Below are positions 27,496 through 55,802 of a stretch of DNA of 64,000 bases, piece by piece (the first letter of the stretch is position 1; the number at the start of each line of letters is the position of its first letter). The notes under the pieces were generated by a model. That model worked only from the letters and a program-made list of their open reading frames with translations. It was not told where the DNA came from and made no database searches. The translations under genes were made by a program, and so were the position numbers. Source of the DNA: Deltaproteobacteria bacterium (GTDB lineage Bacteria > Desulfobacterota > Syntrophobacteria > Syntrophobacterales > Syntrophobacteraceae); NCBI GenBank assembly GCA_012517315.1, contig JAAYVE010000022.1, positions 24,689 to 88,688 on the forward strand, written 5' to 3'.

Positions 27496-27786
27496 CTAGG
27501 CTTCTTCCACCAGTTTGAAGAACTCATCCACCGGAAGCATCCGGTATACTTCATAGTTGACCGTTCCGCGCTGGACGGTGTTCACCATGGATTTGACCCG
27601 GGCCTGTTCATCGGGAAACTCGCTGATGATCATGTACTCACCCCGCGCAACGATGTAATACTCTGCGAGGATCTTCCCCCCCACCGCCTCGACGCTTTTC
27701 CTTCCCATGGCGTATCGTTCGCGGGAGTTCTTGATGTCCTTGTTGCCTTCAGGGGTCTTCTTGAGAAAAGAAACATAAATCGCCAT
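27496..27786 (-). CDS. GYD domain-containing protein
   Basis: 96 aa. MAIYVSFLKKTPEG...ARGEYMIISEFPDE matches the GYD family pattern. Confidence 0.75.
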   Translation of the reverse strand: MAIYVSFLKKTPEGNKDIKNSRERYAMGRKSVEAVGGKILAEYYIVARGEYMIISEFPDEQARVKSMVNTVQRGTVNYEVYRMLPVDEFFKLVEEA

Positions 27787-28418
27787 CTTCTCCTCCTCTT
27801 GTGTGTTGAACCTCTTGGAGAACCACCCACACCCTGTCTGCCGAATGGAACACTAGTAAAGCCGCATGATGGGACATCCTATACGCAGAAGAGGCGATTG
27901 TCAAACGTCCCCATCATTTGAGACTCGTGGAAATGAAGGTTTTGAGAACACAAGTCTGCAAAAACCGAGTGGAACCTGAACGCAAACTTATGTATAGTTA
28001 TTATGGGCATACAGGAAAACATTAAACTTGACGGTTGTGCTCGGAAACAATAGGAGTCCCGATGGAAGAAGCCTTGCCGAAGCTCTCCGTTCATGCGTCT
28101 GATATTGTTCTCCGCTCTGCATCCCGGGGGACTCACCAGACACACAGGGACGGGGGGATTTCCAAACGCCGGGTTCCCTTGTGTCAGTTGCGATTCAGTT
28201 CTTGAAACGGCACCTCTCAAAAGGTCTTCCGCCAAGTCGTTGTTCGGTTTTTCCGCCAAGTCCGCTCCCGCTCTATTTCCCGCCACCACCAGCAGATGCG
28301 CTGTTCCGCCCCCATTGAACATGATGCTCCATCCTCGCATTGCATTCATCCCAGGCCCTTGGGGACGAATGCCGTTCCGGCCGTTTCCGAGGAGGAGGGC
28401 CTTTGAAGGGAGGTGTGG

Positions 28419-28706
28419 ATGGGCAGACTCAAGGAACTGGAAAACCGTTTTTTCATCGATCTATGTGCCTGCAGGGTCTACTGCAGATCTTGCCGGAAGC
28501 CCTGCAAAGCTCTGGAGCTCCCTCAATTCATCCAGTTCTGGTGTGCCACCCGCGGGTGTGAAAACGCCGGGGATGTCAAGCTCTTCAGGGATGGGACTTG
28601 GCAGATATTCGGTTTTGAAGAGACGTTCTACGATAACCGTCTGAGCAGGATCGTGCCAAAGGTTCTCCAAAGCATTGTCACTGGGCGGCGCTTCACCTGC
28701 GGCTGA
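28419..28706 (+). CDS. Small Cys-rich protein (95 aa), hypothetical
   Basis: ATG 28419 preceded by GAAGGGAGG RBS. Eight Cys, seven of them within 35 residues (LCACRVYCRSCRKPC...WCATRGC). No family recognised. Confidence 0.55.
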   Translation: MGRLKELENRFFIDLCACRVYCRSCRKPCKALELPQFIQFWCATRGCENAGDVKLFRDGTWQIFGFEETFYDNRLSRIVPKVLQSIVTGRRFTCG

Positions 28707-28771
28707 GGATTCCCCGGCAGCCTTGCGGAGTGGAAGGGGGCGAGAGGGACCGAACTCTCGAACCCACAAGG

Positions 28772-29503
28772 TCAGAAAAGGCTCCAGCGGGCGCCTGCCG
28801 GGTTGATGACCACCATGTCGCCGCTTGCGCTCACCCTGCCGGGTCGGTCTTTCGCGATCATGGCCATGAGTCCGGGGATCAGGCGGTCAGCGGCTTTTTC
28901 CCTGGCCTCGGGTTGAAGGGGGCTCAGTTGCTCGAGGGCGACGCACAGATATTCCCCGATGCGGAGATCCAGCGACGAGGAGCTGTGGTATCCGTCGGCC
29001 GAAAAGGAAGAATGGGCGAAATTCCCGGATCCTGTGAGCATATGGGGCAGAAATCCGTCACCGGATGAAAAGCGGACGAGGACCGGAACTCCCTCCCGGG
29101 TGAGAACGGCGAGGAGGAGGTCTGTCGGGATGCTCCTGGGATCCGGCACATTCTCTCCCCTGGGGTGCTCCCGTTCCTCCAGGCGGCAAAGGATCAGCCC
29201 ATGGGCCTCCACGAAGGCTTCCCGCAACTGCACCGCTTTTTGGACTTCCCCAAGGGTGAGTTTCTGTCTTCTGTGACTGACGGCAAAGAAATCCTTCACC
29301 GCTTCGGCTGCGACAAGATGGAACCCCGAAATCCCGATACCCGTCACCCAGCAGGATTCGCTGATGTGGTGCAGCTTTCTCGCATCCTCCAGGAGGATGG
29401 GTTTTGAGAGAGCCCCGCCACCTTCCGTGTTCCATATGCGCCGCAGGCTGTCCGCCGCAAGGATGATCTGTTGCGGCAAAGCCAAAGCCAGGTAGCAGCT
29501 CAT
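28772..29503 (-). CDS. Putative Ntn-hydrolase, proteasome-beta/HslV/Anbu-like (hypothetical)
   Basis: Start placed at ATG 29503. The N-terminus MSCYLALALPQQIILAADSLR follows the [T/S/C]xxxA...vvlAaDsR pattern of proteasome-type Ntn peptidases, and is followed by KLHHISESCWVTGIGISG. Fold assignment is inference. Confidence 0.5.
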   Translation of the reverse strand: MSCYLALALPQQIILAADSLRRIWNTEGGGALSKPILLEDARKLHHISESCWVTGIGISGFHLVAAEAVKDFFAVSHRRQKLTLGEVQKAVQLREAFVEAHGLILCRLEEREHPRGENVPDPRSIPTDLLLAVLTREGVPVLVRFSSGDGFLPHMLTGSGNFAHSSFSADGYHSSSSLDLRIGEYLCVALEQLSPLQPEAREKAADRLIPGLMAMIAKDRPGRVSASGDMVVINPAGARWSLF

Positions 29504-29543
29504 GGTTTCACCCTGTCGGCCCGGTATGGGGTCGGTGATTTCG

Positions 29544-29572
29544 TTGACCTGCTGAAATGAATCTTGTAATAT
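29544..29572 (+). promoter_or_regulatory. Sigma70-like promoter candidate facing the amidoligase gene
   Basis: TTGACC (29544-29549), 17-nt spacer, TAATAT (29567-29572), within the 295-bp divergent intergenic region. It would give a ~220-nt leader. Confidence 0.35.
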
Positions 29573-29798
29573 AAACAATGAAAAAGAAAACAATCCCCAT
29601 CGAACGGAATCCTGCGATCCCCTTCAACCGGTGCACGAAGCGCCAATGTCTCGTGCTGCAACTGAAGCCCCCGCTCTGCTGGCAGATGGAAACATCCCGC
29701 TTTTTACTCTCCCATCGGTTTTGCCTGTCGGATCTACGGCCGCGGATTCCAGGGTGCGGCCCCGGTGTGGACCTTATGAGAGACTGGGAGTTCCGGCG

Positions 29799-30755
29799 AT
29801 GAACGAAACCCTGATCCATCGGCTCAAGAAACGCTACCCCATGCTTGAATACTTCACGGAGCGGCCGTTTGGAATCGAAATCGAAGGGTACGGGCTCCAA
29901 TATTATCTCCTTCCCCCAGACAACGGCATTGTCAAACCTTACAACATCCAATCTTGCGCGGGAGACGGGCGGCGGTTCGATGCACTTCTACGGGAGTTTG
30001 GCTTGAATCTCGGCTCCCGCAAGGATTCGTGGCACATCGAGGAGGACAGTTCCATCACCCACAGGGGTGCCTTTGAACTGATCAGCCCGATCCTATCAGG
30101 GATGGACGGGTTGGTCCAGGTTTACCGGTTCCTGGAGTTGCTCGGTCGCATAAAGGGTGTTGAAATCGATGAATCGTGCGGCTTCCACGTTCATCATGGA
30201 GTCGACGCGAAGACGTTCACCTGTCGGCAGCTCCAGGAACTGGTGCGCATTGTCTATTCCATGGAGGATTACTTCTATCTCCTGATCCCCGGCGATCGTC
30301 AAAACAATGCCACCTGCCGACCGGTGGAAGTCGACGTGAGAGCTTTCCTGGATCCGCAGCTTTGTGCCGCTGACCCGGAGACTTCCATCGAACAGATCAA
30401 GAAGCTCTGGTACTCCAGTGAAAATCGCTTCGAATGCGGGGAGGATGCGACCGGGAAGTACGACAAGACCCGCTACCACGGCCTCAACCTGCACTCCTAC
30501 TGGTATCGCTCAACCATAGAATTTCGCTACCATTCGGCGGTCCTGCACAATCGGGATGAAGCCATGCAATGGATCATCTTCACCCAGTTTCTCGTGGAAC
30601 TGAGCGAGGGGCGGATCCCCGAGGTTCTGTTCATGCCGGATGCCAACAAGTGGTTGAAGGCCATTTACAAGATCTACCTCGCCTTTGGGCATCTGGACCG
30701 GATGCGCAGGGTGACAGGGTACACACGGAAGAGTTCGGCCGTACTGAACAGGTGA
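29799..30755 (+). CDS. Amidoligase_2 family enzyme (GS/GCS2-fold carboxylate-amine ligase)
   Basis: Motif series FGIEIEG, WHIEEDSSI, FELISP, CGFHVHHG, TRYHGLNL, STIEFRYHS. Start at ATG 29799 (MNETLIHRL) with GGGAG RBS; ORF track start is 29631. Confidence 0.8.
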   Translation: MNETLIHRLKKRYPMLEYFTERPFGIEIEGYGLQYYLLPPDNGIVKPYNIQSCAGDGRRFDALLREFGLNLGSRKDSWHIEEDSSITHRGAFELISPILSGMDGLVQVYRFLELLGRIKGVEIDESCGFHVHHGVDAKTFTCRQLQELVRIVYSMEDYFYLLIPGDRQNNATCRPVEVDVRAFLDPQLCAADPETSIEQIKKLWYSSENRFECGEDATGKYDKTRYHGLNLHSYWYRSTIEFRYHSAVLHNRDEAMQWIIFTQFLVELSEGRIPEVLFMPDANKWLKAIYKIYLAFGHLDRMRRVTGYTRKSSAVLNR

Positions 30756-30808
30756 GGCGAGAGCAGTTTCGTCTGGCCTGCCTTTGAATGTCGATGGAGC
30801 GGAAAGGG

Positions 30809-31549
30809 ATGTGCGACCTGTTGGCCCTCTCTGCCAGCAACGACTATACCCCCCATGAATACCTGCCCATTTTCGCGGAAAAGGGCAAAGGGAATATGAA
30901 CGGGTGGGGGATTGGTTTTTTCCGTGACAATCGGGCATACGTGGAGAAATCCGCCGAACGGGTTTTCGCGGGGGAACAGGTTCACGAGAGCTTCCAGAGG
31001 CTCGCCAGGGTCATCGACAGCAGGATCATTGTGTCCCACATCAGTTGCTCCCTCAGCGGAGGCCGCCACAGCACCGACAACCATCCCTTTGTGCTGCCTT
31101 TTTTGGGGCACAGCTGGCTTTTCGTGCATGTGGGCGTCGTCGACGGGATTGCCGGATACGAAACCTCCGTTGAGCCCCGCGTCGAATCCGAGGCCTTTCC
31201 GGCAAGGATTTTTGAATATCTCAGGGACCGGATGGTTTCGGCCTTATCCCGCAACCCCTACCTGGGTCTCTACGATGCCCTGAGGAATGCGATCCAGGAA
31301 ATCAGCCGGGACTATCCGGGGAGGTATACTTTCTTCCTGGCCAACGAGTCGGTGCTGTTCGTCTTTTGCAATTATCATCCCATCATGTTGCTCAGGGAAT
31401 CGGAAACCAGCGGGGAAGTGCTGCTCGTCACCTCCGTCAAGGAGGGACTCAGTGCCAAGCAGTGGTTGTCCGTGGTGCCCGAGGAGCCCCACGTGGGCAA
31501 GCTGCTGGTCATTGCGGGGCCGGACGTGCTCTACAGGGGGGACGTGTGA
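30809..31549 (+). CDS. Class-II (Ntn) glutamine amidotransferase-like protein, YafJ-type, paralogue 1 (divergent active-site motifs)
   Basis: Starts MCDLLALS (Cys1 nucleophile), then NGWGIGFF and DNHPF, but has FVHVGVV in place of HNG. ORF track start is 30788. Confidence 0.8.
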   Translation: MCDLLALSASNDYTPHEYLPIFAEKGKGNMNGWGIGFFRDNRAYVEKSAERVFAGEQVHESFQRLARVIDSRIIVSHISCSLSGGRHSTDNHPFVLPFLGHSWLFVHVGVVDGIAGYETSVEPRVESEAFPARIFEYLRDRMVSALSRNPYLGLYDALRNAIQEISRDYPGRYTFFLANESVLFVFCNYHPIMLLRESETSGEVLLVTSVKEGLSAKQWLSVVPEEPHVGKLLVIAGPDVLYRGDV

Positions 31550-31735
31550 GAGACCGGCAACAACGAACGTCCCCAGGCCGAACGCGTCTTGTGCGTGAGA
31601 GCCGGGCGACGCGCCTGGGTTTCGCGCGCCATGACCCTTGCCCGCACGACTCCGTAGGGCGGTTTTCCCGAGCGATCCAAGAGGAGGCGGCCGGTTGCAG
31701 GGAAGCCACCCTGGCCGTCACCTGCCTGAGACGAC

Positions 31736-32482
31736 ATGTGTGATCTATTCGCCCTCTCTGCGGGGAGGCAGTATTCCGCCCCCGAGGCGCTCACGGTGTT
31801 TGCCGAGAGAGCCAAGAAGAACATGGATGGATGGGGGATCGGCTACTTCAGGAAAGACCGGGCCTGCGTGGAGAAGTCCTTTGAGCAAGCCTATGCGGAT
31901 GGCCGGATTCACGACAGTTTTGCGCGCCTGTCGCGGGTGGTCAACAGCCGGCTGATCATCGCCCATGTTCGATTTCGTACCAGCGGTTTCATCGACGAGT
32001 GCCATGCCCATCCTTTCATCCTTCACTTCGCGGGGAGAGACTGGCTCTTCGCTCACAACGGCAAGGCGCCCGGCATCGAAACTTATCTGGCACGGGGGGA
32101 TGGGATCCAATGCGCCTTCAGCGACTCGGCGAGAACGTTCGAATTCCTTCGGGACCAACTCATGACCGACTACGTGCCCTTAGGGACGAAAGCCAGCCTG
32201 TTGGACGCACTCCTTTCCGCCACTTCCCGCCTCGTGGAGGAGTATCCGGGGAGCTACAATTATCTCCTTTCCAACGGGACAGTTCTTTTTGCGTTCAGCA
32301 ACCACAGACAGTTCATGATACTCAGGGGGGATGAACGAAACGGCGGGGCACTCCTGCTCACGACGGTGGAAAAAGGTCTGAGCAATGGAAATTGGGTCAG
32401 AATAGCCCGGAGCACTTCGTCCCGGGGTGTGCTCCTGGCTGTTGCGGGGGGGGACCTCGTGATGCAGCGGAGCCTTCTGTGA
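31736..32482 (+). CDS. Class-II (Ntn) glutamine amidotransferase-like protein, YafJ-type, paralogue 2
   Basis: MCDLFALS, DGWGIGYF, AHVRFRTSG, HPF, FAHNGKA. Clear paralogue of the preceding gene. Confidence 0.85.
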   Translation: MCDLFALSAGRQYSAPEALTVFAERAKKNMDGWGIGYFRKDRACVEKSFEQAYADGRIHDSFARLSRVVNSRLIIAHVRFRTSGFIDECHAHPFILHFAGRDWLFAHNGKAPGIETYLARGDGIQCAFSDSARTFEFLRDQLMTDYVPLGTKASLLDALLSATSRLVEEYPGSYNYLLSNGTVLFAFSNHRQFMILRGDERNGGALLLTTVEKGLSNGNWVRIARSTSSRGVLLAVAGGDLVMQRSLL

Positions 32483-32597: not shown

Positions 32598-33017
32598 TTA
32601 CCGAGAACGTTTTCTTGGCTGCCTCCTTTTGATGGGGTGCTTGTCTGCCAGGATATGCCGCACCATTGTGAGCACTTCCCATTCCGGGTAGGGTTCCAGG
32701 ATGCCGCCGTAAGCTCCCTGCTCGATGGCCTGTTTGATCAGGTCCCGGTTTGCCTGGTCGCAGAGCAGGATGATGCGGCATGCAGGGCATGCGGCTTTCA
32801 TTTTTGTGTAAAGGGAGGCTCCGTGAATGCGAAGCGTCTCCACATCCACGAAAACGATCGCATCGCTTCGCCCTTTGAGAAATTGGTACATCTCTTCCGG
32901 AACTGCCATGATGATGGGCGGGATATCGTTTCTGCGCAGAAGGTTTCCAAGATGATTGCGAATTCCCTCCTCGGAGACCAGCACAAGCAGGGCCGTTTGT
33001 TCGCCTGGTGCGTTCAT
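32598..33017 (-). CDS. Stand-alone receiver (CheY-like) domain protein with atypical active-site residues
   Basis: 140 aa from ATG 33017. LLVLVSEEG, DAIVFVDVE (Asp present), RIILLCD, GGILEPY (Lys position is Glu). ORF track start is TTG 33194. Confidence 0.6.
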   Translation of the reverse strand: MNAPGEQTALLVLVSEEGIRNHLGNLLRRNDIPPIIMAVPEEMYQFLKGRSDAIVFVDVETLRIHGASLYTKMKAACPACRIILLCDQANRDLIKQAIEQGAYGGILEPYPEWEVLTMVRHILADKHPIKRRQPRKRSR

Positions 33018-33190: not shown

Positions 33191-34396
33191 TCAAAGTTTG
33201 GCGTGTTGCTCCAGCTGGCTCTTGAACCGGTCCATGAATTCCATACGGAATGGTTCAATTTCCAGCGCCTCTTCGGGTTTTCCGGAGAGATAGAGGGTCA
33301 TGCCCTTGTAAACCAGGGCCTCCGGCATGCCGGGTTTGATCGCCAAAGCCTCTTCGAGGAATCGCAGGCTTTCCAGGTAGTTGCCGAGTCCCATGAGTGC
33401 GTAACCCTTGCCGACTTTGAGATAGGCATCCCTGTCGGGATGGGAGATGCGTTGTTCGAGTTGCTCAAATGTATCCAAGGCCTCATGGAAACGCCCGAGG
33501 TCATTGAGGCAGAGGCCCTTAAGCTTCAGTGCCTCCAAGTCCGGTGAAGGCAGGGCCATCTCCTTGTCACAGCAGTAGACCGCTTCCTCCAGGAGCCCTC
33601 TCTGTACGAGGCCCCTTGCCCCATCCATCCATCGAATCTGTTTTTCCACCCCGAGGAGTTTCAACATGACCCCTTCATAGGTTTCCTCGATGACCCGCCG
33701 CCCAAAATTGAAGACCGGAGCACCATGTCCCGGCCAGACGTTTTCGACGTCCTTTTTCAGAAGCGCCTTGAGGCTATACAGATAATGCTGGATTTCTCCC
33801 CCGGCACTCTTGTCCGCTTCGGCCATGGAATGGGGCAGCACGGTGTCACCGGTGATGACGGTCTTGGACGGAGCATGGTAGAAGCAGATGGAATCGATGG
33901 TGTGACCGGGGGTGTGGATGATCTCCCACTCAAAACCGCTCAATTCAATGACTTCTCCACCCGTTACCTCCCGCACCCGGCAACCCAGCTGGCGAACGAT
34001 GTCCTTCATTTCCTGAGGAGCGGCTTCGTGGGCGATCAATTCAAATCCACCGGCCTCCGCCACAGCCGGATATGCCCGCAGCAACTCGAAGGCTCCCATC
34101 ACATGATCCCGGTGGCCGTGCGTCACAGCGATCTTGCGGATCCTGGAGAGATCGATTCCCTGCCGATGCAGGTCTGTGAAGGCGGTGTAATCGTTGGCGG
34201 GATCCACGAGGGTCATGGACGGGCCATCCAGGAGGTAGATATTGGATGAAAAGTCGTAGCCTTGCAAAAAGCGGACACTACGGAACAGGGGGTCATGGCT
34301 GTTTAGAATTTCTCCGAGAACCTGCCAACCGGGGTGTTTGGTTTCCTCCTCCTGCTCAAGACCTGGTTCTTGCCCCAATTCTTCCATTCGGTGCAT
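33191..34396 (-). CDS. MBL-fold metallo-hydrolase fused to C-terminal TPR repeats
   Basis: VTHGHRDHVMG, HTPGHT, then TPR-like LGRFHEALDTFEQ / GNYLESLRFLEEALAIKP. Start at ATG 34396 with GGGAGA RBS; ORF track start is 34480. Confidence 0.8.
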   Translation of the reverse strand: MHRMEELGQEPGLEQEEETKHPGWQVLGEILNSHDPLFRSVRFLQGYDFSSNIYLLDGPSMTLVDPANDYTAFTDLHRQGIDLSRIRKIAVTHGHRDHVMGAFELLRAYPAVAEAGGFELIAHEAAPQEMKDIVRQLGCRVREVTGGEVIELSGFEWEIIHTPGHTIDSICFYHAPSKTVITGDTVLPHSMAEADKSAGGEIQHYLYSLKALLKKDVENVWPGHGAPVFNFGRRVIEETYEGVMLKLLGVEKQIRWMDGARGLVQRGLLEEAVYCCDKEMALPSPDLEALKLKGLCLNDLGRFHEALDTFEQLEQRISHPDRDAYLKVGKGYALMGLGNYLESLRFLEEALAIKPGMPEALVYKGMTLYLSGKPEEALEIEPFRMEFMDRFKSQLEQHAKL

Positions 34397-34775: not shown

Positions 34776-35198
34776 TCATGGGGCGATATAGGCCAGTTTG
34801 TAGCTGAGTTTCATTTTCTCCGCAGGCCAGAATTTGACGCTCATGCGCTCCTCGCCCGGCCAGACATCCTTGCCGCCCACTTTCTCGATGAGCAATTCGA
34901 TAAAGTGGAATTCCGTGAGTTCATACTTGGTGATGGCCTCCGGGGGAATGACCACGGCCAACCCGGACTCCTTGGACACGTTCCATTCGAAGTGCTCGTT
35001 GGGTTCGTGTGTCTTGACTCCATCACCGTTGTAGACCGCCAGCAGTTTTCCCGAAACGGTCTTGCCCCGAAGGGGTCTTTCTGCCTCCCAGATCTCGTCC
35101 GGCAGGTGCCACCAAAGGGCTCTGAACCCCGTCTTGACGTACCCCCGTACAAGCATGGGGTCGAATCCGCAAACACCTACACGACATTTTTCAGGCAT
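34776..35198 (-). CDS. Hypothetical protein (140 aa), last gene of CoA-transferase operon
   Basis: ATG 35198 with AGGAGG RBS 7 nt upstream (MPEKCRVGVCGF...). No family recognised. Confidence 0.6.
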   Translation of the reverse strand: MPEKCRVGVCGFDPMLVRGYVKTGFRALWWHLPDEIWEAERPLRGKTVSGKLLAVYNGDGVKTHEPNEHFEWNVSKESGLAVVIPPEAITKYELTEFHFIELLIEKVGGKDVWPGEERMSVKFWPAEKMKLSYKLAYIAP

Positions 35199-35268
35199 GC
35201 TCACCCTCCTGACTGACAGGATCACCGAGGACCGGGCAGAGAGCAGATCGGTCCACCAGGCCGATCGC

Positions 35269-35565
35269 CTATCCTTTGTCCACGATCCTGAGCCATGAAT
35301 GTTCCAATTCCTCAAGTGCGTTCTGGAGTTCTTCCACCTGAAGGTAGCATGAACCCAGAAAGTCGCTCACCTCCGCCTCATTGAGATATTTGTTCTCAAA
35401 AAGCCTTCTGACGTAGGGGACCACATAGCTGGTGACCTCTTCCCGGAACTCCTCCACCAGAAACTCGCCCCCCCCGTCGAGAGGCGCATCGCGCAGATAC
35501 GCCTCCTTCCAGCGGATCACCATTGTCTTGATTGCCGTCAGTTCATTGATGACCAGATCTTCCAT
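35269..35565 (-). CDS. Hypothetical acidic protein (98 aa)
   Basis: ORF packed 4 nt after the preceding gene. Helical, acidic composition and no motif recognised. Confidence 0.6.
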   Translation of the reverse strand: MEDLVINELTAIKTMVIRWKEAYLRDAPLDGGGEFLVEEFREEVTSYVVPYVRRLFENKYLNEAEVSDFLGSCYLQVEELQNALEELEHSWLRIVDKG

Positions 35566-35569
35566 GGCG

Positions 35570-35800
35570 CTATTTCTTCTTAGCCTCGAAGGCGAAGCAC
35601 TTCTTCACCACGTTGAAATCGGCCACGGACCAATAATGGGGCCAGTGGATCTTCTTGCACCAGCCGATAATGTCCGCGGGAGGGAATTGGGACCCCTTCA
35701 GCACCGGTTTGAGGTGCCTGCACTGCCAGCAGATATGATCGCTCTGCTTTTCCGGAATGAGTACGGTATCCAGGAATTCTTCAGGGGATAGCTGTGCCAT
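35570..35800 (-). CDS. Hypothetical small Cys/Trp-rich protein (76 aa)
   Basis: Contains HICWQC (CxxC), plus WC and KC. Lies 18 nt after the preceding gene. Confidence 0.6.
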   Translation of the reverse strand: MAQLSPEEFLDTVLIPEKQSDHICWQCRHLKPVLKGSQFPPADIIGWCKKIHWPHYWSVADFNVVKKCFAFEAKKK

Positions 35801-35818
35801 GCAACACTCCTTTCCTGC

Positions 35819-36304
35819 TCACCATTCCTTGACTTCGCCCTTTTTGATCTTCTCCTGATATTCGGCCCACACGTCGGGGGAGAGCTTCTGGACGTCCCAG
35901 TTGAAGCCGAAGCTCCCGGCGATGCCGGCTGACGGGGGCTGCGGACGCCAACCCCTGACAAGCTTTCCTCGGGCGCTGTATTTCACCATGTCGGCACGGC
36001 CCAGGTAGATGTGCCTGGGGAGGCAATGATAAGGCCTGGTCCTGCCCTCGATGCCCGGGATGTAGCAGTCGTAACCGTCGAGGGGCTTGTCCGCGACCAG
36101 GGGGCTGGTGTCGGGCTTCTCCCCAGGTCTCTCCTCCGGGCCTATGTACATGTGGCCCTGGATCATGTGGATGTAGTAAACCGTTCCACATTCGGCGCAG
36201 TTCACCTTCCCTTCCCAGTTCCAAAAGCAGTAAGGGTCAAGGTAGTTCACCGTGTTGCAGGGTTTACCGTCCTTCTCTTTCTTGCACCAAATGATATCGC
36301 ACAC
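35819..36304 (-). CDS. Hypothetical Cys-rich protein (about 162 aa)
   Basis: GTG 36304 preceded by GAAGGAGGA, which avoids overlap with the upstream stop at 36322; the longest ORF start is 36346. Cys pattern CDIIWC...PC...YC...NCAEC...DC...HC. Confidence 0.6.
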   Translation of the reverse strand: MCDIIWCKKEKDGKPCNTVNYLDPYCFWNWEGKVNCAECGTVYYIHMIQGHMYIGPEERPGEKPDTSPLVADKPLDGYDCYIPGIEGRTRPYHCLPRHIYLGRADMVKYSARGKLVRGWRPQPPSAGIAGSFGFNWDVQKLSPDVWAEYQEKIKKGEVKEW

Positions 36305-36321
36305 AGTGCATCCTCCTTCTC

Positions 36322-37737
36322 TTAGATCATGCTCTTGGCATACCATTCTTCGATTTTGGCCGTGGGATAGCCGAGCAGTTCATGGTAGATCTTCACGTTG
36401 TCGGCGCCCACCGGTCTCCAGATCCAGTAGAGCCTGCGTGGGGTCTTGGACATGAGGCCCGCTGAATACGTGCCGTGCTGGAGAATGTCGCCGAAGAGAG
36501 GATCCTCGGTCCACCGGACGGTTCCGCGCTGGCGGTAATGCTCACATTCGTAGACTTCCCTGTCGTTCATGACCGGCTCGGCCAAGAGGCCGGCATCCTG
36601 GAGGATCTTGACGACTTCCGAACGGCTCTTGTCGGCGGCCCAGCGCTCGAGCGCCGCGTAGATCTCCACCTGGGCTTCCCCTTCCACCCGGTCCTTGTGT
36701 GCTTTGTATTTTTCGTAGAGCTCCTTCATCCCCGTGATGGCGCAGAGTTCTTGGAAGTCCCTGTCCTGGAAGGCGCTCACCATGGCATACCTGGCTTCGA
36801 ACTTGTCCTGAGGATTCACCGCGTCGGGAAAATCGGACTTTCCGCACAGGATGATCCCGTGGACGCACAGCTGGGTGTCCCAGTTGCCCCAACGCTGGCG
36901 CACGATTCCAAAACGGCCGTAGAGGGGTGCTGCATACCCTAGGCATCGTGTAGCCGCCTGCACCTGGGAGAACTCGATCATGGTCCCGAGCCCGGTCTTC
37001 CGTCTCCAGTGAATGGCCGCCAGGATCCCGAAGGTGATCTGGGTCCCTGAATACCAGTCGATGCACCAGTTGGAATGCTTGGTGGCGTGGCCCCCCATGA
37101 ACTCATGCATGCCGGTGACCGATGCGAGTCCGGCATGAGCTTGGCCGAGAATGTCGTAGGAACCGCCGAACACCTTGGGCCCATACCCGAAACCGCCGCC
37201 CCAGACGTAGATGAACCGGGGGTTCATTTCCTGCAGGAACCGATAGCTTTGCTTCCACCGATCGAAAGTCCCGGGGCGGTAACACTCCGTCAACCCGTCG
37301 GACATTTTCACCAGGCGGTAGAAGGCTTCCTTCATCTCGTCCAGGTGATAGTCCATGGTGATGTGGTACTCGTTGGGGTTGGCGTTGAGGTAACCGTAGC
37401 CGGTGCCGGTCATGGGCCGGGTGTCGTGGAGGGGATAAAGGTAACACTCATTGAACGGGGAAGTGTGCCGCATGGGGTCCCCCATCCTAGGCATCTCCAC
37501 CTTGATGACTTCCGCTCCCAGTTCCGCCAGGTTGGAAACCGAGTGCGGGGTGAAAATATACATGGTGGTGCTCAACCAGCGGATGCCCTTCAGAGCCATG
37601 GGCTTGCAGAACTCATTGCCCGGGTCGAATGCCTTGCGGCAATACTCCTCATAGGGCATCTTCATTTCCTCGAGCTCTTCCTTGCTCTGCGGGCCGGGCA
37701 AATCCTCCAGCCTGGTGACTCTCAAATCCTTTGCCAT
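36322..37737 (-). CDS. Family III CoA-transferase (CaiB/BaiF/Frc-like), subunit 2
   Basis: MAKDLRV... with [45 protein letters not shown] 37737 overlaps the upstream TAA by 1 nt (TAATG). The track ORF to 38247 is an out-of-context extension. Confidence 0.85.
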
Positions 37738-39224
37738 TAGATTACCCCCTTTTCCTTGAGTGCATTGACATCGGTTTGACCCATCCCAAGATACTTCAGG
37801 TACATCTCGTAGTTGTCTTTGCCGAGAGGCCTGCCCAGCCATTTGACGCGGTGGGGCGTCCGATACTGGAAGGAATTGGGCGACGCCGAGTAGAGGATGG
37901 TCCCATACTGGTCGCTGTCGATGGTGTACACCCAAGGTCGATATTTGAAGTGCGGGAATTCCGCCACTTCGTCGATGAACAGAATGGGCCCGGCGGCGAT
38001 TTCGTACTCCAGGAGCTTTTGCTCCGCCTCCACCCGGTTGATGTCCCTGAGCCAGCGGGTCGTGAGGGTATAGGTCTTGATGAGGGCCTGGAGGGCGTTT
38101 CTCGCAGCCATTTCCTTGAGGAGGGGATCCTCGTGGATGAGTCGGCCGAACTGTGGGAAATCCCTCTCGATGCACATGCCGATACGGTACCACAGGCGGT
38201 CTGTCTGGCCGCCGATCATCATGTAGCCGTCTTTGCAGGGGTTCCATTCATACTGGTTCAGGTTGGGGTCCCAGGCCCCCGTCCTTGCCTTGATGCTCTT
38301 GTTGAACCCGTACCAGCCGATGTCGAAGTCCAGGATGTCCATCTGGGTTTCGGCACCGGTCACCTCGATGAGCTGTCCCTCACCGCTGAACTGGTCCCTC
38401 CAGTAGAGGGCGGCCAGAATGCTGCAGGCACCCTGTTCACCGGCGACATAGTCGGCGAACCAGACGCCGGAACGGGTGGGGTCCCCGCCCTTTCCGCGGG
38501 GGAGCTGATCCTGAGGAAAGCCCGTGTTGTGGACGAAGGAATTGGCGCAGCCCCCGAATGGTTCCAGGGTCCACTGGCCGAATTTGGAGAGTTTGTCCTT
38601 GTAAGGACCCCAAGTGCCCCGCACCGCGATTTGGCAGTATACGAGACCTGGATTGAGCTTGGAGAGCTGCCGGTAGCCGACTCCCAGGCTGTCCATGTAG
38701 CCCGGGGGATACTCTTCGATAATGGCGTCGGCGTGGGTGGCCAGCTTCTTGTACAATTCCCTGCCCTCTTCCGTCTCGATATTGAGGGTGATGGAGTAGG
38801 CGTTGCGCAACTCATGAATGAAGTCCAAACCGGTCTTGGTCCCCGTGTCCCGGTCGGCCAGCATGTATTCTTCCCGTCCGAAAGGGGTGAGTTTTCGCAA
38901 GGGGTCCCCTTCGGGGGGTTCGATGTTGATGACCTCGGCCCCGGCCTCCCCCAGAAGGCCCGCGCAGAACTTGTTGCCCATCCTCCAGAGTCCCATGCAC
39001 AGGACTCTGAACCCCTGGAGGGCTTCCGGCTTCCCGAAGCCGTATTCGAACCTGAGGTTGTCCTCACACCATTTTCCGAAGTCCGTGGCCTTGCGCCGTG
39101 CATAGACAGCCGCCACCTCCTCCGGTGAGGGAGGCGGTGTCACAGGCCATGGGCGTACCTCCGGACCCATCAAGGGCAGCGTGTCCGCAAGGCTGTTGAT
39201 TTCGATATCTCTCTTTTCTGCCAT
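37737..39224 (-). CDS. Family III CoA-transferase (CaiB/BaiF/Frc-like), subunit 1
   Basis: [10 protein letters not shown]...[57 protein letters not shown]. Start at ATG 39224 (MAEKRD) with GGGAGG RBS; ORF track start is 39278. Confidence 0.85.
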
Positions 39225-55152: not shown

Positions 55153-55802
55153 TCTTCACTCTCCAGAAAATCCGTGATGTAGGGATTGGTCTCCATTTCG
55201 TGCCCCACCGTGGAGCTGGGTTGATCACCATAGTCGTGGCCGGGCCAGACAACTGTTTCCGGGGGCAAGGCAATGATTTTCTTCAAAAGGGATTCCAGGA
55301 GTTGTTCGAAAGAAGCTCCCGGGAGGTCTGTTCGTCCCACCGCCCCCACGAACAGAGTGTCCCCCGTGAAAAGATTCCCGTCAATGAGGATACAGCAGGC
55401 CCCGGGCGTATGGCCTGGAGTGTGGATGAATTTCATGGTGAGACCGCCGAAGGACAGTTCATCCCCGTCGCGCACCCGGATGTCCGCAGGCGATGCGGAA
55501 TCCACGCCCAGCATCCTGGACCATCCCTTGAACTCGGGCTTTTGAAAGAAGACATCGTCCAATTCGTGCATGACCACCTTCGCTCCTGTCACCCTTTTCA
55601 GGCGGTCGTTTCCACAGGTGTGGTCCGGGTGCCCATGGGTGTTGACGATGTAAAGGAGCCTGACACCGTGCTCCGCGAGGAGTGCCAGGACCCGGTCTTC
55701 GTCCCCGGCGGGATCAATGAGGATGCCTTCCTTGTTTTTTTCGTCATAGACCAGGTAACAGAAGACCTCCATGTGCCCTACAGGCATCTGAATGATTTTC
55801 AT
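55149..55802 (-). CDS. MBL-fold metallo-hydrolase (glyoxalase II-like)
   Basis: MKIIQMPVG...IVNTHGHPDHTCGN, HTPGHTPG. Start at ATG 55802 with GGAG RBS; ORF track start is 55892. Confidence 0.85.
   Translation of the reverse strand: MKIIQMPVGHMEVFCYLVYDEKNKEGILIDPAGDEDRVLALLAEHGVRLLYIVNTHGHPDHTCGNDRLKRVTGAKVVMHELDDVFFQKPEFKGWSRMLGVDSASPADIRVRDGDELSFGGLTMKFIHTPGHTPGACCILIDGNLFTGDTLFVGAVGRTDLPGASFEQLLESLLKKIIALPPETVVWPGHDYGDQPSSTVGHEMETNPYITDFLESEE

Follow-up and report, generated by a model that had tools for sequence, protein, structure and literature searches.

A conserved amidoligase with two class-II amidotransferase-like partners in Desulfobacterota, and a rare proteasome-like neighbour

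What might a bacterium do with an amide-forming ligase that is encoded beside several putative amide hydrolases? The question is raised by a 64-kb stretch of DNA from a Syntrophobacteraceae-type Deltaproteobacteria metagenome-assembled genome (MAG); the whole stretch is here termed the window, and all positions are in its numbering. It carries a gene for a protein of the Amidoligase_2 family, followed by two genes for class-II amidotransferase-like proteins, GAT_A and GAT_B, and, in the opposite direction, a gene for a protein of 243 amino acids (aa), X243. An initial annotation of the window had proposed a five-gene system for amide ligation or tagging, which also drew in small open reading frames (ORFs) close by. 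The conserved unit is the trio of amidoligase, GAT_A and GAT_B, not five genes, and X243 is a facultative, lineage-restricted accessory gene of this neighbourhood. The features at the centre of the question are as follows, where Ntn stands for N-terminal nucleophile.

29799-30755, plus strand: Amidoligase_2, 318 aa; PF12224, E=1.3e-30; first gene of the trio
30809-31549, plus strand: GAT_A, 246 aa; PF13230, E=4e-19; apparently degenerate class-II amidotransferase-like Ntn paralogue
31736-32482, plus strand: GAT_B, 248 aa; PF13230, E=1e-27; canonical class-II active site
28772-29503, minus strand: X243, 243 aa; no Pfam match; proteasome-beta-like Ntn fold in the model; predicted Ser nucleophile
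29544-29572, plus strand: promoter-like TTGACC-N17-TAATAT in the 295-bp divergent spacer, directed towards the amidoligase

The family membership of the ligase is clear. It matches PF12224 (Amidoligase_2) at 107.6 bits against a cut-off of 22, over positions 2-243 of the 245 in the model, and also matches the PHROG family 'amidoligase enzyme' (E=4e-28). The motifs from which the initial annotation had named it an Amidoligase_2 enzyme are present in the translation and their residues are invariant in 25 orthologues, so that the assignment holds. Invariant across these orthologues are E27, E29, E81, D83, E93, H130, H132, H133, R225, E241 and R243. These Glu, Asp, His and Arg residues probably are those of a glutamine synthetase (GS)/GCS2-type active site, a catalytic role that is suggested by knowledge of the family. 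The protein is 100% identical to NCBI entry GX443_07115, deposited as 'MAG: hypothetical protein' from a Deltaproteobacteria bacterium. There are 467 relatives at E<=1e-10, with about 60% identity across Desulfobacterota; the identity of phage homologues to the window amidoligase is at most 31%.

The evidence for the trio comes from a survey of one genome per species, in which 168 loci were found, 80 were fetched with their flanks and 60 were informative, i.e. had enough downstream sequence. The succession amidoligase, GAT_A, GAT_B, in fixed order and on one strand, is present in 51 of the 60 informative loci, from Syntrophobacterales, Desulfobacterales and their relatives. The remainder have GAT_A alone (2/60) or are paralogues without a GAT gene (7/60). 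Identity within the trio is 55-65% across several orders, while the genes upstream and downstream vary, and the gap between amidoligase and GAT_A has a median of 127 bp across genome loci. The amidoligase and both GATs thus do co-occur in relatives. The proposed five-gene system, however, does not hold together across genomes: of the 80 species-level loci around the amidoligase, only one (L005) contains X243 by profile search, the Cys-rich 95-aa protein CYS95 is confined to the closest relatives, and a 47-aa ORF is not conserved. The cultured Desulfoferrobacter suflitae (L016) has the trio.

What accompanies the trio depends on the lineage. In Syntrophobacteraceae-type loci it is followed by four genes of unknown function and a gene here termed MBL-TPR, for a protein with a metallo-beta-lactamase (MBL) fold and tetratricopeptide repeats (TPR); MBL-TPR is present in 18 of the 80 genome loci and stands beside the trio in Syntrophobacteraceae-type loci only. 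Other trio loci have an FKBP gene or a gene for a 266-aa protein upstream. An ADP-forming acyl-CoA synthetase (CoA_binding/Succ_CoA_lig/ATP-grasp_5; L067:2736-4763) lies directly upstream of the trio on the same strand in 33 loci, most of which carry an annotation as Desulfobacterales or Desulfobacteraceae; 27 loci also have an FlK-type hotdog thioesterase there (L040:7058-7462), again on the same strand. This arrangement suggests that acyl-CoA synthetase, thioesterase and trio make up a five-gene operon in those loci.

A second amidoligase paralogue, 55-58% identical and without GAT genes, is found in genomes that carry the trio too (L049:7118-10918, L045, L051, L055-L058, L063, L064, L072, L073 and L079), and looks like a separate amine-ligation pathway. 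Nine of these loci have a gene for a 493-aa protein upstream, which has no relative in Pfam or the PDB, and four have a NUDIX gene 3' of the paralogue. In five, a pyridoxal-phosphate (PLP)-dependent amino-acid decarboxylase directly precedes the amidoligase. As this decarboxylase produces amines, small-molecule amines are suggested as substrates of the ligase.

The two GATs differ in what they have kept. Both match GATase_4 (PF13230), GAT_A at 68.9 bits and GAT_B at 97.3 bits against a cut-off of 23, which bears out the earlier description of them as class-II amidotransferase paralogues that start with MCDL; their mutual identity is 42%. The Cys nucleophile directly follows the initiator Met (MCDI/MCDL) in about 70 GAT_A and 59 GAT_B orthologues. 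In the 59 GAT_B orthologues the HvR, HAHPF and SDSAR motifs and the oxyanion pair of FAHNG are kept at >=90%. In the GAT_A set the Arg is replaced (Hi.C), HNG is variable or Val and SDSAR has become dvy.AR, so that of the canonical residues only the Cys is kept; yet the overall conservation of GAT_A is at least equal to that of GAT_B despite the loss of the glutamine-binding residues. GAT_A is thus best described as an apparently degenerate or re-specialised partner. For GAT_B, retention of Cys1, Arg, Asn-Gly and Asp leads to the prediction that it binds a free glutamyl group, either glutamine or a gamma-glutamyl amide. The solved structures closest to GAT_B are 1TE5 (E=3e-11) and EgtC (E=5e-5), both of stand-alone hydrolase type. 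The spacer between the two genes (31550-31735, 186 bp) contains an imperfect GC-rich inverted repeat, CCCAGGC...GCCTGGG, at about 31571-31618; it is not conserved, the L001 spacer being only about 60 bp long.

How might the trio work? The evidence bears directly on family membership, residue conservation, fold and synteny; what the enzymes act on, which way the reactions run and whether the parts are coupled physically or by regulation is what we infer from it. Tentatively, and with somewhat less than even confidence, the trio is read as a small-molecule gamma-glutamyl-type ligate-and-release cassette, with GAT_B as the hydrolase, GAT_A as an altered partner and X243 as a separate accessory Ser-Ntn neighbour. 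The amidoligase would spend ATP on an acyl-phosphate intermediate, for which the gamma-carboxyl of glutamate is the likeliest site, and would couple the activated acid to an amine. GAT_B would be an Ntn cysteine amidohydrolase that re-cleaves the gamma-glutamyl amide bond, following the ligate-then-release logic of EgtA/EgtC or PuuA/PuuD. GAT_A may either act as a partner subunit or be a hydrolase that prefers another acyl group. X243 most likely would be a self-contained amide or peptide hydrolase that is not obligatory for the ligase system.

The comparison with EgtA/EgtC had already been drawn in the initial annotation as an add-then-remove gamma-glutamyl logic, and it holds in part: it fits the residues kept in GAT_B, but the two GATs score only 26.4 and 43.2 bits with the EgtC equivalog TIGR03442, far under its cut-off of 218.65. 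EgtA/EgtC and PuuA/PuuD, like the trio, combine a ligase of the GS/GCS2 superfamily with a gamma-glutamyl-amide hydrolase, and GAT_B is a sequence relative of EgtC. EgtA/EgtC differs in that the window ligase belongs to Amidoligase_2, not to GCS2 or Gln-synt. Moreover, no EgtA-, EgtB- or EgtD-like genes are present among the Pfam-annotated neighbours, which here and below are those at 24.3-37.7 kb. The host organisms are strict anaerobes, and the EgtB step needs O2.

The same residues also admit another chemistry. In a glutamine-dependent amidotransferase complex, GAT_B would be the glutaminase and GAT_A a degenerate scaffold, and the ammonia released would pass to the amidoligase, which would convert a carboxylate to a primary amide by the logic of MurT/GatD or of a split asparagine synthetase. 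We regard this as unlikely, although it is in keeping with several properties of the trio. The three genes are the sole conserved unit and are self-sufficient, the active site of GAT_B has all the glutamine-binding residues of true class-II amidotransferases, and a structural or bridging role would suit a degenerate GAT_A paralogue that is kept at 60-66% identity. By analogy with the amine-producing decarboxylase beside the GAT-less paralogues, the GATs could supply the nucleophile, and the acyl-CoA synthetase and thioesterase upstream in many Desulfobacterales loci hint at a carboxylic-acid substrate. Against such a complex, class-II amidotransferase domains that channel ammonia are to our knowledge almost always fused to their synthase, and EgtC, the characterised stand-alone member of GATase_4, is a hydrolase. 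The partner of PF12224 in its Pfam annotation, after Iyer and coworkers, is reportedly a GAT-like thiol peptidase in some cases and an AIG2-type gamma-glutamyl cyclotransferase in others. An AIG2-type partner, the case in other lineages, cannot give ammonia, and the alternation would therefore favour gamma-glutamyl removal over ammonia supply. MurT/GatD resembles the trio in that a stand-alone amidotransferase and an ATP-dependent ligase are encoded together (PMC3267633, PMC5871853). It differs in that MurT has the Mur-ligase fold and GatD is a class-I enzyme with a triad, whereas the window has a GS-like ligase and class-II Ntn GATs.

X243 poses a separate problem, as its sequence gives no significant match in Pfam, NCBIfam, PADLOC, PHROG or the PDB. 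A word-indexed search of 5.8 billion proteins gives two relatives and an exhaustive hidden Markov model (HMM) search of 1.84 billion representatives gives 21 at E<=1e-3; with 21 in 1.84 billion, the family is very rare. One locus was found in a metagenome scan with an alignment of eight X243 sequences. A relative, WP_084055616.1, is encoded by the cultured Desulfacinum hydrothermale DSM 13146. Two positions, D18 and G57, never vary in the family alignment; S2 and K43 are kept at >=90%, and nearly all members begin Met-Ser. A profile of the family finds almost only proteasome beta2 subunits among PDB sequences. It aligns D18, K43 and G57 to AADTR, AKLH and GAG of yeast beta2 (Asp17, Lys33 and Gly47), and extension of the ungapped register with yeast beta2 makes S2 the equivalent of Thr1. 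PF00227, the proteasome family, does not match X243 itself but does match eight of 23 family members (best E=1.1e-5).

Structure modelling points the same way. The AlphaFold2 model has a predicted local distance difference test (pLDDT) score of 88.5 and a predicted template modelling (pTM) score of 0.87 when 23 sequences are used, as opposed to a pLDDT of 35 with three. It gives 853 Foldseek matches to the PDB at E<=1e-3, the top 50 of which are all proteasome subunits (probability 1.00, TM 0.46-0.68), and it has a long helix at residues 84-111. X243 is therefore, as modelled, a genuine proteasome-like Ntn family member with equivalents of Ser1, Asp17, Lys33 and Gly47, and its nucleophile is predicted to be the Ser exposed by removal of Met. 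The proteasome-like N-terminus that had been noticed in the 243-aa protein is supported by the profile, by PF00227 in relatives, by AlphaFold2 and by Foldseek, and the check by structure that had been proposed for it places a confident model inside the proteasome/Ntn fold.

Fuchs, Alva and Lupas define the proteasome-like family by a beta-sheet core with Thr1/Ser1, Asp17, Lys33 and Gly47 (Fuchs et al., 2021; PMC8665760). X243 has the alpha-beta-beta-alpha proteasome-subunit fold and the four residue equivalents of that definition. It shares the fold with 20S beta, HslV, Anbu, BPH and connectase, and has no propeptide; as in most non-20S homologues, it would mature by Met removal. The 22 new homologues of that work, which include PHD (Proteasome Homolog of Deltaproteobacteria), were described as 'without genomic contexts suggestive of a function' (PMC8665760). 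The X243 family, by contrast, has a recurrent gene context. No accession matching the PHD representative OGP72033.1 is present among the members of the X243-family clusters; PHD is compared here by description only.

What is this context, and does it tie X243 to the trio? The further features of the window that bear on this are the following.

27496-27786, minus strand: GYD, 96 aa; PF08734
28062-28205, plus strand: 47-aa ORF; no family match; probably not a gene
28419-28706, plus strand: CYS95, 95 aa; no Pfam match; convergent with X243
32598-33017, minus strand: RR139, receiver-like, 139 aa; Response_reg at 26.9 bits, below the cut-off of 30.2
33191-34396, minus strand: MBL-TPR, 401 aa; Lactamase_B (E=3e-21) and C-terminal TPR families
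34776-37740, minus strand: CoA-transferase run, with a family III CoA-transferase (PF02515) and then 175-, 76-, 98- and 179-aa proteins with no Pfam match

Relatives of X243 are found in these settings, given with their identity to the window protein.

Window (100%), L001 (51%), L005 (39%; its contig is also that of L088) and L100 (36%): X243 and the amidoligase transcribed divergently
L094, 35%: X243, a 302-aa gene and the trio co-directional; then a response-regulator-type gene (RR) and MBL-TPR on the opposite strand
L101, 34%: as L094, with the trio missing
L087, 29%: MBL-TPR, RR139, X243, then rplM/rpsI
L090, 32%: MBL-TPR, X243
L091, 31%: RR139 (minus), X243 (plus), MBL-TPR (plus)
L096-L099, 26-30%: beside an HDOD-HD gene
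L085 (Nitrospirota MAG), 24%: island with integrase and nSTAND3 genes

X243 thus adjoins the trio in five lineages (the window, L001, L005, L100 and L094) and stands beside the MBL-TPR or receiver-like gene without the trio equally often. RR139 adjoins X243 relatives in L087, L091, L094 and L101, and MBL-TPR does so in L087, L090, L091, L094 and L101. X243 is accordingly tied to MBL-TPR and RR139 at least as much as to the trio. In a plain neighbour-joining tree of the amidoligase, the window, L001 and L005 form one clade; L094 and L100 fall inside the same 31-member Syntrophobacteraceae-type clade but do not form one group. The retention of X243 by the amidoligase through an inversion gives no more than moderate support for coupling of the two.

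Some other properties of these neighbourhoods should be mentioned. A 272-302-aa protein with no Pfam match is encoded directly downstream of the X243-family gene in L094 (2484-3392) and L101 (1522-2340), the two copies being 44% identical, and L087 has a short remnant-like match to it upstream of X243. The most distant family member, for which the PF00227 match is 'faint', is that of L085; it lies in a mobile- or defence-like island (L085:696-7724), together with genes for nSTAND3 and a phage-type integrase and two of HTH_17 type.

The region between X243 and the amidoligase has also been conserved in part. The start-to-start spacer is exactly 295 bp, and it contains at 29544-29572 the TTGACC-N17-TAATAT element, just as the initial annotation had described. 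Sites of this type are not in themselves rare in the region, with three found against 2.8 expected in shuffles. However, both hexamers of the 29544-29572 site are kept in L001, the 51%-identity relative, where the other spacer sequence has diverged, which makes the site a plausible candidate for the promoter of the amidoligase operon. A 74-aa ORF at 29578-29802, which overlaps the amidoligase start codon, was considered as a precursor peptide and rejected: it is only 85% identical among contigs that are otherwise 99% identical, and it is absent from L001 and L005.

It is possible, although doubtful, that the synteny is neutral, i.e. that X243 works with MBL-TPR and the receiver-like protein as a separate proteolytic or regulatory module and that its adjacency to the amidoligase has no functional meaning. 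The window order minus the oppositely oriented trio is exactly that of L087 (MBL-TPR, RR139, X243). X243 is found directly by MBL-TPR or RR139 in three arrangements (L087, L090 and L091), and L101 is like L094 without the trio. In addition, all loci that have both X243 and the trio belong to one Syntrophobacteraceae-type clade, with an extended synteny that runs from the 175-, 76-, 98- and 179-aa proteins to MBL-TPR. Neutrality is not favoured by the 18 genome loci that have MBL-TPR without X243, nor by the distant relatives in L085 and L096-L099, which have neither partner; and since the contigs are short, the trio may sit just outside L087, L090 and L091. The degrees of confidence attached to the readings in this text are not mutually exclusive, and neutral synteny is compatible with either chemistry of the trio.

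Sister genomes have a different gene in the slot upstream of the amidoligase. The 266-aa protein mentioned above is found in 11 loci (L012:3057-3854, L007, L010, L011, L013, L014, L016, L019, L020, L022 and L024) at 58-72% identity; it has no Pfam family above threshold and is not present anywhere in the 64-kb window. Its gene precedes the amidoligase by 0.3-1.1 kb in the same orientation in nine of the 11 loci; the copies of L014 and L016 are about 7 kb distant and oppositely oriented. Residues E52, H108, H110, S119 and D122 are invariant, a JAMM-like spacing with one extra residue. Seven of the 11 members have weak matches to Prok-JAB, with a best E of 0.006; the PDB and NCBIfam give no support for a JAMM assignment.

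The reading of the trio as a ligate-and-release cassette with X243 as a separate neighbour has to be weighed against several points that do not favour it. The spacer from which X243 and the amidoligase diverge has a conserved promoter-like element, and X243 is kept beside the amidoligase in five lineages, at amidoligase identities of 58-83% and in two orientations. With a JAMM-like 266-aa protein in the equivalent upstream slot of sister genomes, a peptidase partner could be selected for. A profile of the amidoligase finds no solved relative among PDB sequences. Furthermore, the trio has no conserved modifying enzyme beside it, and without one the ligase and hydrolase would resemble a futile cycle; a stand-alone GAT with a ligase could equally be a glutamine-dependent amidotransferase.

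Could the small ORFs provide a substrate? CYS95 has GGGAGG 5 nt upstream of its ATG, and as a protein it is conserved in L001 (72% identity), L005 (63%) and L020 (45%), with overlapping frames less conserved. The Cys-rich ORF with a strong ribosome-binding site that had been picked out in the initial annotation is thus confirmed on both counts. C22, C25, C29, C42 and C47 are invariant and give a CxxC...Cx4C pattern. CYS95 is a real small protein, a putative zinc ribbon, whose conservation is local only. In L020 it is 8 kb away from the amidoligase, in L007 a degraded remnant of it lies beside GYD, and L094 lacks it; it has no match in Pfam, NCBIfam or PHROG. As a Pup- or ubiquitin-like tag it was rejected, because its C-terminus is not conserved. 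The 47-aa ORF fares less well: it exists, but its only matches are in L002 and L003, two contigs that are nearly identical to the window, and L001 lacks the ATG.

Upstream of GYD there is a promoter-like TTGACA-N17-TAGGAT (27876-27904, minus strand), both hexamers of which are kept in L001 and L088 with diverged flanks. A second stretch common to the window and L001 is CTGCTCGGAAACAA.AGGA at about 28036-28058.

In an integrated tagging-and-removal system, proteins such as CYS95, or lysines of target proteins, would receive glutamate or a short peptide from the amidoligase, the GATs would trim or deamidate this tag, and X243 (in sister genomes, the JAMM-like peptidase) would remove the tag or degrade the target, much as pupylation does and as has been suggested for Anbu. 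This we consider improbable. It would account for the proteasome fold and catalytic residues of X243, for the retention of X243 by the amidoligase in five lineages and two orientations, for the partly conserved divergent promoter region, and for the 266-aa protein of the sister clade, with its E...HxH...S..D residues and weak Prok-JAB matches, in the equivalent upstream slot. There is also a precedent in the Anbu operon, where amide-forming enzymes are found with a proteasome homologue and protein tagging has been proposed (PMC6376114). However, the trio is found without X243 in >50 species, and X243 relatives exist without the trio. CYS95 has no conserved C-terminal residue, is missing from one locus and is distant in another. 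No AAA+ unfoldase or Pup_ligase-type enzyme is present among the Pfam-annotated neighbours. The binding residues of GAT_B fit a free glutamyl group rather than a peptide backbone, and the JAMM-like assignment is weak, with a best E of 0.006 and nothing in NCBIfam or the PDB.

The comparison with known proteasome-associated systems is instructive. The Anbu operon has ATP-grasp, alpha-E and transglutaminase genes, and its tagging hypothesis is equally unproven (PMC6376114). It shares with the window an amide-forming ligase beside a proteasome homologue, but has Thr1 where X243 has Ser, and no Anbu-type ATP-grasp, alpha-E or transglutaminase genes are present among the Pfam-annotated neighbours. 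In pupylation (PafA/Dop/Pup/20S), the conserved C-terminal Gly-Gly-Gln/Glu of Pup has no counterpart in CYS95. In contrast to both systems, the association of proteasome relative and ligase in the window is lineage-restricted. The pupylation-type logic that had been put forward for the locus appears improbable: the ligase matches PF12224 only, no Pup-like tail is found, and the Pfam-annotated neighbours include no Pup_ligase or AAA+ protein.

A broader form of the tagging idea, which we consider highly improbable, would join the operon of amidoligase and GATs with the proteasome homologue of Ser type (the JAMM-like peptidase in sisters), within a clade of syntrophic and sulfate-reducing Deltaproteobacteria, into a new protein or peptide gamma-glutamyl tagging-and-removal system, with MBL-TPR and the receiver-like protein as adaptor or regulator. 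If true, it would be the third bacterial link between an amide ligase and a proteasome relative, after pupylation and the proposed Anbu system.

The wider surroundings offer few further clues. The Pfam-scanned neighbours at 24.3-37.7 kb comprise MBL-fold, AMP-ligase, GYD, receiver-like and MBL-TPR proteins, four unknowns and the CoA-transferase. The run at 34776-37740 is kept throughout Syntrophobacteraceae-type loci, where it leads into MBL-TPR and RR139; its 175- and 76-aa proteins are Cys-rich and are 74-97% and 78-92% identical, respectively. A further MBL-fold gene at 55236-55721 (minus strand) weakly matches the MBL domain of MBL-TPR (31% over 178 aa). There are no Rfam families in 26.5-35 kb, where the only match is a sub-threshold one to a miRNA, and the only structured RNA in the whole window is one tRNA-Leu. 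The GC content is uniform throughout (0.55-0.61); with this and no PADLOC match, a reading of the locus as a defence system was rejected.

How much of this was known before? The pairing of Amidoligase_2 with an amidotransferase is a published comparative-genomic observation (Iyer, Abhiman, Burroughs and Aravind, 2009, as cited in PMC10580990). Phages such as phiEco32, LUZ24-like phages and OM43 phages have the same PF12224 beside class-II amidotransferase-like genes. The phage pairs cited there carry PF13522 (PMC10580990), whereas the window has PF13230 in two paralogous GATs, one canonical and one apparently degenerate, in fixed order; and, unlike the phage pairs, the window trio is a chromosomal branch from Desulfobacterota. 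In the literature searched, no experimental characterisation was found of the trio or of the Amidoligase_2-amidotransferase pairing, which agrees with the earlier remark that no locus of this gene set had been characterised. Strong HMM matches, the co-occurrence of the trio genes and the modelled Ntn fold of the 243-aa protein are each the opposite of what the initial annotation had named as its refutation. Already known, then, are the Amidoligase_2-GAT pairing, as a prediction, and the proteasome-like superfamily; new are the fixed pair of a canonical GAT and a seemingly degenerate one, the wide distribution of the trio on Desulfobacterota chromosomes, and a rare, predicted Ser-type proteasome relative with a recurrent neighbourhood.

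For the families concerned, a canonical class-II amidotransferase kept beside an apparently degenerate one is a clean case for the study of a pseudo-enzyme partner. The recurrent neighbours of X243, namely MBL-TPR, the receiver-like protein and the amidoligase operon, are concrete partners for experiments. Cultured entry points are Desulfoferrobacter suflitae for the trio and Desulfacinum hydrothermale DSM 13146 for an X243 relative. Anaerobes of environmental importance, both sulfate-reducing and syntrophic, carry the trio in at least 51 genomes at species level, and one solved member would annotate hundreds of bacterial and phage genes.

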